DNA of 64,000 nucleotides from Octopus vulgaris (taxonomy: Eukaryota), in assembly GCA_951406725.2 (NCBI GenBank), contig OX597822.1, forward strand, positions 35,712,001 through 35,776,000. Direction: 5' to 3'. The notes under the pieces are model-generated. The model worked only from the letters and a program-made list of their open reading frames with translations. It did not search any database and had not been told where the DNA came from. The stretch's first letter is position 1. Every line of letters begins with the position of its first letter. Of the stretch, positions 3,111 to 63,804 are shown in pieces. The position numbers and the translations under genes are program-made.

Positions 3111-3210
3111 ATATATATAAAATACGATGTACATTTGAAAAAAATTAAAATGTATAAGCAAGAAGCACATGCTTGATTGGCCTCGTGTTTATATGTTTAA
3201 TCTTGGCGTC

Positions 3211-3279
3211 CTTGTTGAAGAGGACTTCGCCTAGTAAATTATTTTATTTGCTAAAATAAGTCAGAAACCATGGTCCAGG
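3211..3279 (+). ncRNA. Type I hammerhead ribozyme, long stem II, degenerate
   Basis: CTTG-TTGAAGA-GGACTT..AAGTCA-GAAA-CCATG-GTC-CAGG. C3U change and a G.A mismatch at the base of stem II. Confidence 0.6.
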
Positions 3280-3511
3280 AAAGAGATGGTAAATGTTTTT
3301 ATTTTTCATTCCCTTCAAGAATTTATCCCTAATTAGTGGTTTGGACTTTCGCTTTTCTTTCCAGCGTAAGTGATTCCTATGATGGAAACCTCTTAATGTG
3401 TTTAAATGTACACTGCATTTTATATAAATAATATATAGCCTATTGACTGATTTTCTATACTCTAGGCCACTGGTAGTAAAAATTTCTAAAATCTTTATTA
3501 CGCTGATATTA

Positions 3512-3559
<48 letters not shown>

Positions 3560-3564
<5 letters not shown>

Positions 3565-3867
3565 TAAGGATAAAATCTTAATAAGGAATCTTAACAAGAA
3601 ATTATCAGGTAGTTAGCGTGAAAAACCTCATAAGAGAAAAAATTCGAAAATAATTTTTTTACTTGAAAATATTTATTTATATTGTATAGAGGGCATTATT
3701 ACACATAAATGCCACACGCTAAGAGGGACATAAGTCATTACTACCAAAATTTAACTAATCATACCTAATGCAGCTCTCTAATGATTAGTTAAATTTTGGT
3801 AGTAATGACTTATGTCCCTCTTAGCGTGTGGCATTTATGTGTAATAATGCCCTCTATACAATATAAA
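3560..3867. repeat. Repeat fragment ending in a perfect 87-bp foldback
   Basis: Arms 3676-3762 and 3781-3867 are exact reverse complements with an 18-nt loop; between TA-rich microsatellites. Confidence 0.85.
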
Positions 3868-10647: not shown

Positions 10648-10653
<6 letters not shown>

Positions 10654-11228
10654 CAATATAAGGAATGGCCATTCTTTGACTATTTTTTCTTTCTCACCAG
10701 ACCGCTGGTAGCGGAAAAGTTTTTCTAGAATTTTTTACTACCCTTATATTTATTAATTAATGATTTTTTGGCTAATTTTGAAATTAATTCAGCAGTTTAT
10801 ATTTGCTGCTGAGTAGACTGCGCGATTGCGGTAAGATTTGAAAATTTAGGGCATATGTGACAGGAGGCTTCTTTACCATAGCCTCGTGGACATATACTCG
10901 TCCTAGGCTCTCTGCTGACGAGGCACGCCAGATGTAAATGAATTTAATTTAATTTAATTAATTCATTTGCCAAAGTTTTGCCGAAACTATGCATAGTCCA
11001 GAGATGAAAGGGGTAAACGTTTTTATTTCTCTTTCTATATCAGAATTACAACTATTTAGCGGTATGAGTTTTGGCTGCTCTTTCTAGTGAGTCGAATGTC
11101 CTATATGGCCATTCCTTATATTGTTGAATGTATATTATAGTCTTTGACTAATTTTTCTTTCTCACCAGACCGCTGGTAGCGGAAAATTTTTTTCTAGAAT
11201 TTTTTACTATCCTTATATTTATTTATTA
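10648..11228 (+). mobile_element. Non-autonomous hammerhead-bearing element (Penelope pLTR / retrozyme-like), 468-bp period
   Basis: Direct repeat 10673-10755 / 11141-11224; perfect inverted repeat 10648-10672 / 11105-11129; internal hammerhead; (TA)n on both sides. Confidence 0.8.
10909..11004 (+). ncRNA. Type I hammerhead ribozyme, apparently intact
   Basis: Stem I TCTCTG/CAGAGA; core CTGACGA; stem II GGCA..TGCC (61 nt); GAAA; stem III ACTA-TGCA-TAGT; GUC triplet with predicted cleavage after 10998. Confidence 0.88.
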
Positions 11229-56456: not shown

Positions 56457-58530
56457 CTATGTTAGTGTTGCATGATAACTGCAATCAATGGTTTATACTA
56501 ATGGTAGTGAAATGTAGTTATTCGCCTTATTGTTGTCATTACTTTTTCTTTTCTTTTTTTTTTAGTATTTTGTCATGTGTTGCCACATGGACGCAATTTA
56601 CATCATTAAATGTTGAATGCTATTTTTATTTTTCGACCAGAGAGGTTGCATTGCTTTCATCTGTTGGGATATTGGCTTGCAGTCTGAACATTGTTCCAAC
56701 TTATAGGAATGTTATCAATTCCACCATCCTTCAGTTTTCGGGAGATAAAATTTATTTGATCACTTTATATGAAGGCATGTGTGCTCTATGTCTATCTGAT
56801 TTGAATACGTTCTCCTTGATCCCTATATAATTTTTTCAGCACCGTTTAATAGCTGTTAATATTGCTCTATATATATAGGTGTCTTTGTGAGACATCTGCC
56901 ATTAAACGGACAGGATGTAATGCAATTGAAGTAGAATTCTAGCATTTACATTAGGGAGTTTTTAGTTTATAACTTATGGGTTGGGTTGCTGTCCGTTTCA
57001 AACAGCTGTAGCTGGCTTTTATATTATTCGTATTGAAAAGCTTGTGATATTTATGGGTGACGTAAGAATGTTTTTTTCTTTTATCTGTGACAGGAAATTT
57101 GTAGATGTTTGATGTTTTACAAAATGTAAGGTATAAAGGAAATGACAATGAGTCTCTAAATATATATGTGTGTATACCTGTGTATGTGTGCATATGTGTA
57201 TTTTTGCTATACTCATATATAGATACATACATATATGCATATACATATACAAACGCATATATATACATATACATATAAATATCTTTACATACACACGCGT
57301 ATGCATATATGCGTGCGCGCGCGCGTGTGTGTGTGTGTGTAACACCCCTCCTCCGAAATTCGCATCATTTTGGAAATCAACATTTAAGTGGCAGGTCGGC
57401 GGATTTCTTGCGGTATTTAATTGCATGCTTTAGGTTACGAGTTCAAATCCTTTCTAGGGAACCGATAAAATAACGCATCAGTCACAACCAGTCTATGATA
57501 CATCAAAGATGTGAATGAAAGTATAACAGCAGACAAAGAAGAACATTTCTTTCTTGGTACCGTTTCAACTCGGCCGTCTATATATTCTCACAATAGATAC
57601 AATTGTATCTTACTTTTGGATGTTATTTTCTCTTTTTGTATGTTTTTTCTTCTATCAGAATTGTATCCAATTTCTGGGACTTACTTTGAGGTATTCTAAA
57701 TATCTATTTGGTTTTCGTGTATTAAATGTTTGGCTCAACAAATCTTGAAACTTGATTCGCTGGTTACATTATTTGATCAAACGTTGTAGGTGTACATTTA
57801 AAAGGATGCGTGAGGAGTGGCTGGTTTAGAACAAGCATTCCTGCTTGATCTCTTGCTCACTGACAAAGATAAAGCATTTGCGAAAACATTAGTTGTTTCC
57901 CTCGCCCCAAACTTTTTTATGTTCTTCAGGCCAGACATTCTATTTCTGTACAAATTAATGCAAAGCTATATGTAAATGATTGCGATATCAACACTTGTGA
58001 AGTCCGTTTATTATTGCTATCTCATCTCTTCCGTTTATCATTACTATCTCAGTTCTTTCGTAAAGAAGTTGCAATTTGTATTAATGGGCCTACAAGACGA
58101 ATTAGTGTTGGCATTTAGTCTTTGGAGATTTATACTGGCGATTTTAGGTCTGTTGTTTAGATGGAAAAAATTTGTCTGAATAGATGAGATGGTTAGCTTT
58201 GATTTGTCAACTGCAAATTGAAGTTGGCATAAAGAAAAGTCAAAAATATATATATAATTAAGAATACTCAAATAAGAAATGAAACATGCTGAATACTGTA
58301 CATGCAAACGGGAGATAAGATAATTATATTTAACGATAAAGAAATTTAGTTTGTCGTTGATAAGGAATGAGAAAAAGATCACATGAGAATCGTCTTTGAA
58401 AACAAATATAAAAACAAATGGAAATTTCAGTAAATTACTGAAAACTAAGAATGAATCAACTGTTTTAAAACTTGAAATGAATATTCAGAAATCTTTTTTT
58501 TTTTCTTTCTGTATTTTCAGTCAAAGGGGG

Positions 58531-58675
58531 AGGTAGTGCTCATGGACCTTCGCAGGGCTGGTGGGCGAAAAAGAGAAAGGTAGTGCTCATGGACCTTCGC
58601 AGGGCTGGTGGGCGAAAAAGAGAAAGGTAGTGCTCATGGACCTTCGCAGGGCTGGTGGGCGAAAAAGAGAAAGGT
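58531..58675 (+). repeat. Perfect 47-bp tandem triplication
   Basis: AGGTAGTGCTCATGGACCTTCGCAGGGCTGGTGGGCGAAAAAGAGAA starts at 58531, 58578 and 58625. Confidence 0.95.
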
Positions 58676-58850
58676 ATGTTCAAACAGGAGTCCTGGTCGG
58701 AAAACTTGCAACAGAGCAAACACCTTTAACAGAACCCGAGATGCTTGGTGGGGGTGCTAAACTAGGCGATGTATTAATCATACCGCTCACGTAGGATATG
58801 GCGATATTTGAACTCTGCTTCCCAGGGATCTTAATTTTAATTTTTTTTTT

Positions 58851-59144
58851 TTGCCCTTTTCAAGACTAGCCAGGCTCATGAGCCTGGTTTCTGTGGTGTA
58901 TGTGTTCCCCCAGTTGGACGGGACGCCAGTCCATCGCAGCGTTACTCAAGAAACAGGAAGAGAGAGTGAGAGAAAGTAGTGGCGAAAGAGTACAACAGGG
59001 GTCGCCACCACCCCCTGCCGGAGCCTCGTGGAGCTTTTAGGTGTATTCGCTCAATAAACACTCACAATGCCCGGTCTGTGAATCGAAACCGCGATCCTCC
59101 GACTGCGAGTCCGCTGCCCTAACCGCTGGGCCATTGCGCCTCCA
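58851..59144 (-). mobile_element. SINE family A (short-tail variant)
   Basis: Reverse complement of 22085-22386. Confidence 0.9.
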
Positions 59145-59324: not shown

Positions 59325-59731
59325 TTTACTCTTTTACTTGTTTCAGTCATTTGACTGCGGCCATGCTGGAGCACCGCCTTTAGTCGATCAAATCGACCCC
59401 AGAACTTATTGTTTGTAAGCCTAGTATTTATTCTATCGGTCTCTTTTGCCGAACCGCTAAGTGACGGGGACGTAAACACACCAGCATCGGTTGTCAAGCG
59501 ATGTTGGAGAGACAAACACAGACACACAAACATATACACACACACATTCATACATATATATTATATACATATATACGACGGGCTTCTTTCAGTTTCCATC
59601 TATTAAATCCACTCACAAGGCTTTGGTCGGCCCGTGGCTATAGAAGAAGACACTTGCCCAAGGTGCCACGCAGTGGGACTGAACCCGGAACCATGTGATT
59701 CGTAAGCAAGCTACTTACCACACAGCCACTC
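59325..59731 (-). mobile_element. SINE family B, full length
   Basis: High identity to 42228-42629. Confidence 0.92.
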
Positions 59732-62308: not shown

Positions 62309-62358
<50 letters not shown>

Positions 62359-62360
<2 letters not shown>

Positions 62361-62959
62361 ATAATATAGGGTGAAATTAATTAATTAATTTAGAAATAAT
62401 CATTAATTTCGCCAAGTAGAGATCGGCATGTAAAAGCCCCATTCAAGGAAGGTTTAAGTAATACTAAGTAAGTAAGAGTTTAGCAACGATTTGCCTCACC
62501 ACACACCGAATTTAGAAATAGCAGTCAAAAAGTTTTAGCTATTCTTTCTACTTAAAAGGGAGATCCCAGTAAAACCAAAGCACTTAAAAAGCAAACAACG
62601 CAGGCAAAAGAGAAAGAAATGACGAAAATCATTGTATATTAAATCACCTACGGACGTACGTTTCGGAATTAAGTCATTGCAGAGCATAAAAATTAAATAA
62701 TTATGTCTTACCTGACTATTTTCCTCCTCAGCGTAGGACTCTTCAATCATATTAATAATTGTGTATTAAATTTGAAGGCACTAGAAGACATCACCTCAAC
62801 TCATGGTATCAGAGCGAGCGTAAGCCATTACGCTCCAAATTCAAAGGATGAATGAAAGTATGTCACCATCCCCCTTCCGCCAGCGTACTGCCAAAATAAG
62901 ATGCTACAGTTGAGGTGATGTCTTCTAGTGCCTTCAAATTTAATACACAATTATTAATA
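62359..62959 (-). mobile_element. Non-autonomous hammerhead-bearing element (Penelope pLTR / retrozyme-like)
   Basis: Perfect 52-bp inverted repeat 62750-62801 / 62908-62959; internal hammerhead; 3' end on (TA)n; shares ttt(t)g.ctgct.tttcta and a.cc..tatatt.att motifs with the 10648 element. Confidence 0.8.
62647..62737 (-). ncRNA. Type I hammerhead ribozyme, apparently intact
   Basis: Minus strand: CCTACG-CTGAGGA-GGAA..(60 nt)..TTCC-GAAA-CGTAC-GTC-CGTAGG; predicted cleavage between 62653 and 62652. Confidence 0.88.
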
Positions 62960-63189
62960 ATAAATATTTTCCTTGGGGCTGGCCAGATTGGAGCAATCTC
63001 AAGAATATTCAGCCAAAATTGCGAGGACAATCCGGTTCTTGACTGAAGATAGAAAACTCCGAATGACTCGTCTTTGTTTTCTTTGTATCGTTTATCTGGA
63101 TGTTTTGTTGTCCCTTTTTATATCACCTAGTTGTCCGGATGTTTTGCGTTCTTGTCTCATTGTGCATGTTATATATATATATATATAAC

Positions 63190-63405
63190 ATGTGTTTGTC
63201 TGTGTTTGTTCCCCCCCCCCACAACATCGCTTGACAACAGATGCTGGTGTGTTTACGTTCCCGTACATTAGCGGTTCGGCAAAAGAGACCAATAGAATAA
63301 GTACTAGACTTACAAAGAATAAGCCCGGGGATCGATTTGTTCGACTAAAGGCGGTGCTCCAGCATGGCCGTAGTCAAATGACTGAAACACGTAAAAGAAA
63401 GAATA
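63190..63405 (+). mobile_element. SINE family B 3' half
   Basis: catcgcttgacaac..gcggttcggcaaaagagacc..gtcaaatgactgaaac. Confidence 0.85.
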
Positions 63406-63524: not shown

Positions 63525-63804
63525 CGCCCTTTTCAAACCTAGCCCGGTTTCCCGCGAGTCCGCTGCCCTAACCACTGGGTCATTGCGCCTCCACATAATG
63601 TTTCTTCTCTAGCCATGCCAGGCTCATAAGGGCCGGTTTCCTGGTTTCAGTGGCGTAGAAATTCCCCATCTGGACGGGACACCGGTCCGTCGCAGGATTA
63701 CTCATTTTTGCCAGCTGAGTAGACTCATTGCCCGATCCAAGAATCGAAACCACAACCTTACGATCATGAGTTCAACACCCTAACCACTAAGCCACGCGCC
63801 TCCA
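63525..63804 (-). mobile_element. Internally deleted family A SINE (63525-63592) and a related older copy (63608-63804)
   Basis: Both end in ccctaaccact..cgcctcca heads. Confidence 0.8.

Follow-up and report, generated by a model that had tools for sequence, protein, structure and literature searches.

Near one end of the 64,000-nucleotide stretch of Octopus vulgaris DNA analysed here (the window), a pattern descriptor scan detects a type I hammerhead motif on the minus strand at 62737-62647. It has a CUGANGA, GAAA and UH core, three stems, and an open stem I that pairs CCUACG (62737-62732) with CGUAGG (62652-62647) over 6 bp. The core strands CUGAGGA (62731-62725) and GAA (62664-62662) flank a 60-nt stem II (62724-62665) made up of a 4-bp proximal helix, a 3x3 internal loop, a 5-bp helix and an AU-rich distal hairpin. 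Stem III is the palindrome ACGUACGU at 62661-62654, with 2 bp and a 4-nt loop in a single molecule and an 8-bp duplex in a dimer, and it is followed by C17 at 62653, placing the predicted cut between 62653 and 62652. The motif lies within a direct, minus-strand copy of a non-coding repeat unit at 62359-62911, whose 3' end abuts a (TA)n microsatellite (62310-62358) that is the likely insertion target. No ORF of at least 120 aa overlaps the element and all six frames are broken by stops, in line with the initial annotation, which had reported no ORF.

The window has a GC content of 28-44% and is rich in microsatellites and short repeats, which gives it the character of intergenic or intronic animal DNA; it contains no tRNA gene. 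A separate multi-copy repeat at 62967-63168 (plus strand) belongs to the flank and is not part of the element: it is cut off at 62967, ends at (TA)n, and the number of loose contig ends before 62967 is 154, 121, 77 and 25 in four public sequencing runs (X1, X2, X3 and X11, respectively) whose contigs we aligned to 62359-63165. At 63043-63072 this flanking repeat contains CTGAAGA, CGAA and GTC, arranged as in a hammerhead, but we could draw no valid stems around them. Three tandem copies of a 47-bp unit (about 95% identity) occupy 58523-58676, and dispersed SINE-like repeats lie at 59330-59506 and 63222-63398, an inverted pair at 91%, and at 59105-59144 and 63554-63593. Repeats near the locus appear to resemble octopus SINEs, for which a text search gave no confirmation. 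Antisense to the ribozyme, 12 nt at 62804-62815 (plus strand) resemble the plant tRNA-Met primer binding site. This likeness is probably due to chance, and the available part of PMC4918200 holds no verbatim match to it.

How well defined is the hammerhead? A strict descriptor (stem I of at least 6 bp, stem II of at least 4 bp) recovers two loci in the window, 62737-62647 and 10907-11006, and none in each of 50 shuffles; a looser descriptor recovers three loci, against a shuffle mean of 0.14. The complete core, the 6-bp stem I, the palindromic stem III and the putative cleavage position 62653/62652 named in the initial annotation are all found in place, as are the three segments that it had proposed for stem II, which the fold reproduces. 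Its description of the motif as a second intact one holds insofar as another intact motif lies at 10909-11004, but that motif is no close copy. The geometry, with a helix I of 6 bp, a helix II of 4 bp and a helix III of 1-2 bp with a palindromic loop, is that of the canonical animal type I hammerhead as defined in PMC4209133. Where the canonical form has a small terminal loop 2 contacting loop 1, the fold here opens into the 3x3 internal loop, beyond which lies another hairpin. The Rfam model Hammerhead_1 (RF00163) aligns to 62647-62737 over model positions 1-45 with 21.4 bits, below its gathering score of 34, and no gathering-level Rfam match occurs in the window. Predicted pair probabilities are 0.85-0.99 in stem I and 0.86-0.99 in proximal stem II, and about 0.01 in stem III. 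The palindrome homoduplex, on the other hand, has 8 bp and a predicted energy of -9.8 kcal/mol. With stem III open in the monomer and strong in the dimer, dimer dependence is therefore predicted, which agrees with the initial reading of the palindrome as pointing to dimer cleavage. Since stem III needs a dimer, poor cleavage is predicted for a lone copy.

The long stem II is more stable than expected for its composition: its 60 nt fold at -13.8 kcal/mol (z -3.3), and only two of 500 shuffles are equally stable. Stem II is likewise 60 nt in an X1 family contig (record 3). Across 40 of 100 variant rows, eight variants fall in stem II and none in the core, stem I or stem III. The second stem II pair is variable on both sides, from G-C towards A-U or G-U (54% and 89% of X1 depth, the two sides being unphased). 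When the natural variants were compared with random changes in three sets of 2000 controls, 246, 558 and 515 controls were as stable, and natural variants thus keep stem II no more stable than random changes do, which gives no sign that the distal hairpin is conserved. These data bear on the idea that the family spreads like a SINE or a satellite and that its ribozyme is a catalytically dead relic, an idea we consider improbable. It can draw on that comparison with random changes, on a fold of the whole ribozyme region that barely beats shuffles (z -1.9 and -1.6), on the predicted failure of stem III to form in a monomer, and on the broken core of a decayed relative in the window. Against it stand the lack of variants in the core, stem I and stem III among those 40 rows, the two-sided variation of the second stem II pair, and the intact core, stem I and stem III in two divergent elements.

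The sequence at 62359-62911 is a single member of a non-coding, multi-copy family. Contigs of all four runs contain it with many variants; those with one variant at 62634 number 28, 27, 19 and 2, and those with one variant at 62472 number 64, 59, 22 and 7 (X1, X2, X3 and X11). We used X11 for family continuity alone, and its origin from RNA is a guess. Between 0.20 and 0.43 of the locus words are present in 20 of 24 listed sequencing runs, under four organism labels, the best run reaching 0.43; no RNA run is listed among them. A single X1 contig has a head-to-tail joint in which 30 letters link position 62911 to 62360, and 7 of these letters repeat the end of the element. From this joint we deduce a monomer of about 580 nt, with a tail of about 23 nt that is missing in the present copy, which is otherwise about one monomer long. 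Record 10 of X11 (62636-62822) is a near-identical family copy that is 19 nt longer over this interval. None of the contigs listed spans the locus.

Upstream of the ribozyme lies an inverted repeat of 52 bp without mismatches (62750-62801 and 62908-62959, spacer 106 nt), the nearest end being 13 nt from stem I. The initial annotation had described this repeat and its distance correctly; its view of the inverted end as the terminus of the element has to be given up, since the part that copies internal sequence in inverted orientation is only about 48 bp long (62912-62959). The inner arm (62750-62801, minus strand) is ordinary family sequence upstream of the ribozyme, and contigs 62627-62783 (X1) and 62636-62822 (X11) span it through into the ribozyme. 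The spacer (62802-62907, minus strand) is family sequence in direct orientation, represented by contigs 62772-62911 (X3) and 62793-62907 (X11). The outer arm (62908-62959, plus strand) comprises the inverted copy 62912-62959 and a 4-nt overlap at 62908-62911. In family contigs of X1, X3 and X11, the sequence beyond 62907-62911 differs from this outer arm. Therefore, the inner arm and the spacer are part of the family, whereas the outer arm arose at this locus, its outer 48 bp being a locus-specific inversion joined over the 4-nt overlap; the mirror-image end is likely a by-product of insertion. Opposite-strand joints are found at other positions, 62542/62811 in X2 and 62548/62650 in X1 (one contig each), and inversions therefore recur in other copies. 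Taken by itself, 62750-62959 resembles a 210-bp element with perfect inverted ends, and one might suppose that a miniature DNA transposon, ending in inverted repeats of 52 bp, had landed beside the ribozyme. The contigs already contradict this supposition, to which we give hardly any credence: they pass from the inner arm, which is internal to the family unit, straight into the ribozyme, eight X1 contigs matching the outer arm proceed into stem I and the core and not into the flank, and we see no target-site duplication.

An arm of 48 or 52 bp without a mismatch bounds the divergence of the arms at 6.1% or 5.6%, respectively (95% bound). By the calibration in PMC13282606, in which a distance of 0.09 equals 25 million years, and with an octopus as host, this allows an age of up to about 8 million years. 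At eight well-covered places the copy differs from at least 89% of X1 depth, which may be a matter of species or of subfamily. Against one X11 contig, by contrast, there are only 2 other letters in 187 and a gap of 19 nt. The perfect arms had been taken to mean a young insertion; a fairly recent one fits, but with a divergence bound of 5.6-6.1% and eight differing places a very young one is only weakly indicated.

The element has company. A relaxed scan of the window finds the 62359-62911 element, two others that we call e1 and e3, and no more, compared with two hits in total over 20 shuffles. Element e1 (10648-11225, plus strand) has (TA)n on both sides and consists of a 25-bp inverted 5' piece followed by 1.18 units of an ORF-less 468-bp monomer, seen as 83 nt that recur in direct orientation at 95%, the period being 468 bp; it carries one intact hammerhead (10909-11004) with a 61-nt stem II. 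The inverted 25-bp piece stops 11 nt before the direct copy starts, as twin priming would leave it. Element e3 (3209-3518, plus strand) ends at (TA)n and has a decayed hammerhead at 3209-3281 with a 42-nt stem II, a palindromic stem III and a changed first core base. Seven segment comparisons among the three elements, with 300 shuffles each, gave three significant alignments: the downstream parts of e1 and e3 (z 16.6, 0 of 300 shuffles), the downstream parts of the 62359-62911 element and e3 (z 6.7, 0 of 300), and the last 46 nt of the 62359-62911 element with the segment after the e1 junction (z 4.4, 0 of 300). The direct alignment of the 3' parts of the 62359-62911 element and e1 was not significant (z 0.5, 84 of 300 shuffles), nor were the three upstream comparisons. 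From these alignments we take the three elements to be distantly related and circularly permuted; the connection with e1 is the weaker one, and all three are AT-rich. All three long-stem-II elements end at (TA)n, a kind of tract that is common in the window. At 3676-3867, an inverted repeat with perfect 87-bp arms and 18 nt between them also adjoins (TA)n, and descriptor scans find no hammerhead in it.

What kind of element might have left such a copy? With a probability of roughly 0.6, we interpret it as a solo, roughly unit-length copy of an approximately 580-nt non-coding repeat that is a non-autonomous derivative, of the non-LTR retrozyme type, of a Penelope-like element and was inserted by the enzymes of that element. 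In favour of this interpretation are the canonical ribozyme geometry apart from the insert in loop 2, a stem III predicted to be open in a monomer and strong in a dimer, the multi-copy family with its head-to-tail joint, the inversions in other copies, and the ORF-less partial tandem of e1 with its inverted 5' piece. A non-coding unit with a type I hammerhead is what retrozymes have. Animal non-LTR retrozymes, as portrayed in PMC7229834 (Cervera and de la Pena 2020) and bioRxiv 10.64898/2026.07.22.740005, share with the octopus element a non-coding unit of a few hundred bases, a single type I hammerhead with a weak palindromic helix III, low GC, the occurrence of tandem and solo copies, and a proposed Penelope-like mobilisation. 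They differ in having a 4-bp helix with a small loop where the octopus ribozyme has a 60-nt stem II, and the solo monomer with an inverted 5' piece also sets the octopus copy apart. The bioRxiv text treats retrozymes as non-autonomous derivatives, solo monomers included, with consensus lengths of 51-972 bp. The locus has one hammerhead and no reverse transcriptase or GIY-YIG ORF. Several points count against the retrozyme interpretation. The family's monomer junction comes from the one head-to-tail contig, a type of joint that does not appear among the 15 of 24 joint rows listed; no autonomous partner was found, the 24 of 47 long window ORFs scanned giving no match to a reverse transcriptase or GIY-YIG domain; the direct alignment with the 3' part of e1 and the upstream comparisons are not significant; natural variants keep stem II no more stable than random changes; and only one of nine predicted retrozymes cleaved in vitro, according to the same bioRxiv text.

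Insertion at (TA)n or AT-rich DNA and an inverted 5' piece beside a direct copy, seen here and in e1, are features of Penelope-like insertion. Inverted 5' copies, optional tails of 30-40 bp and (TA)n targets are reported for Penelope-like elements in PMC8557442 and PMC3846280, and endonuclease-bearing insertions of this type have in common with the octopus elements the inverted 5' piece, the partial tandem of e1 and the (TA)n target, the latter as in Hydra and many Naiad families; an optional tail may be a further shared trait. Unlike them, the octopus copy has no ORF, its inverted piece is internal, and the tail of about 23 nt, known from one contig, is shorter than the usual 30-40 bp, which counts against the favoured interpretation. 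It also counts against it that the inverted piece ends outwards in internal sequence, where the typical inverted pseudo-LTR has the 3' end of the element. Could the copy instead be the 5'-truncated end, a pseudo-LTR or 3' region, of an autonomous Penelope-like element, and not an independently propagating mini-unit? We consider this unlikely, though the most serious of the alternatives. Most Penelope-like hammerheads are single motifs in truncated copies (PMC4209133), such ends regularly carry inverted 5' pieces and tails, and only 175 nt upstream of the ribozyme are present at the locus. However, beyond the 3' end the sole contig that extends so far leads straight back to 62911, the 468-bp repeat of e1 has no ORF, no frame in 62340-63300 is open for a notable protein start or end, and the ribozyme lacks the extra base after A9 that is typical of the minimal hammerheads in autonomous elements.

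If the copy is a retrozyme-type derivative, its history may be sketched as follows. Tandem source loci would be transcribed, and pairs of hammerheads would complete stem III through the palindrome, so that the multimer would be cut into monomers that might be circularised, in keeping with the model of PMC7229834, in which dimer hammerheads release monomers that may circularise. A Penelope-type reverse transcriptase-endonuclease would nick (TA)n DNA, and reverse transcription would begin from an internal start, as shown for an anole element (PMC11167929). The template would be an uncut multimer or a circle, to judge from the intact ribozyme at 294 nt from the 3' end and from the length of e1, which exceeds one unit. 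At the 5' flank, a second priming event would produce 48 nt of opposite orientation, joined to the first piece over 4 nt. The lone copy left behind would show little cleavage and would be unable to excise itself. The twin priming of LINE-1 provides an analogy for the inverted piece. Among the titles and abstracts searched, no paper applies twin priming to Penelope elements, and PMC3846280 proposes self-priming instead. A unit-length copy with an uncut ribozyme in mid-copy would offer a test of circle versus multimer as template.

The insertion pattern is already known, and the new part is the long stem II common to three divergent elements. Within 64 kb, these elements share a proximal helix II of 4-5 bp, an internal loop and a long AU-rich hairpin, with stem II lengths of 42, 60 and 61 nt. 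A stem II of 42-61 nt exceeds the published search descriptors, and the motif at 62647-62737 is also under the Rfam cut-off: the descriptor of PMC4209133 has 3-7 bp and a loop of 3-10 nt, allowing about 24 nt, and the searches of PMC8557442 allowed 7-17 nt, with 'half cores' of 35-50 nt recorded without structure. In fungal viruses, a 'long' helix II is one of 6-8 bp. Minimal pseudo-LTR hammerheads (PMC4209133) resemble the octopus motif in being type I, in their G10.1-C11.1 pair, in their palindromic helix III and in their predicted dependence on a dimer; the octopus motif differs in its 6-bp helix I, in a 60-nt stem II beyond that descriptor and in the absence of an extra base after A9. The combination that marks the minimal Penelope-like form in this source, an extra base between 9 and 10.1, a helix II of 7-8 bp and a helix I of 4-5 bp, is not found here.

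The hammerhead of PLE-X1_sMoe (PMC8557442, File S2) is the one long-stem-II precedent that we found. It is Penelope-like, its stem II has a 9-bp stem and a long loop, and it was flagged as deviating from the canonical form, but it comes from an autonomous-type element of a spike moss and has a different core spacing and different stems. A literature search of open-access text, combining hammerhead with octopus, Penelope, stem II, dimer, Neptune and microsatellite, returned no description of a long-stem-II form of this kind. As to a link with the Naiad 'half cores', a 9-nt motif of the ribozyme occurs once in the accessible supplement of PMC8557442, outside the Naiad part, and by eye we see no likeness to the last lines of the cephalopod Naiad consensuses or to the Hydra-1_oBim hammerhead as far as these sources were available. 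Descriptor scans gave no matches in viral contigs and 16 in metagenome contigs, none of which has both stems (the best has a stem I of 5 bp and a stem II of 1 bp); showing no homology beyond the motif, the 16 were rejected as relatives and are taken as chance.

More tentatively, and as a possibility that we would not yet call probable, the three elements could represent a diversified and abundant clade of Penelope-mobilised retrozymes, whose hammerheads are active with a hairpin of 40-60 nt in loop 2 and in which the internal loop after the 4-5-bp proximal helix replaces the tertiary contact to stem I. If so, long-arm ribozymes would be invisible to Rfam and to the published descriptors, hammerhead counts in such genomes would be too low, and some Penelope-like families listed with only a 'half core' might bear long-armed ribozymes. 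If the long-stem-II motifs cleave, they would extend the natural hammerhead fold and reveal a natural insertion site in loop 2, and a simple change of descriptor would allow the ribozymes in animal repeats to be counted again.
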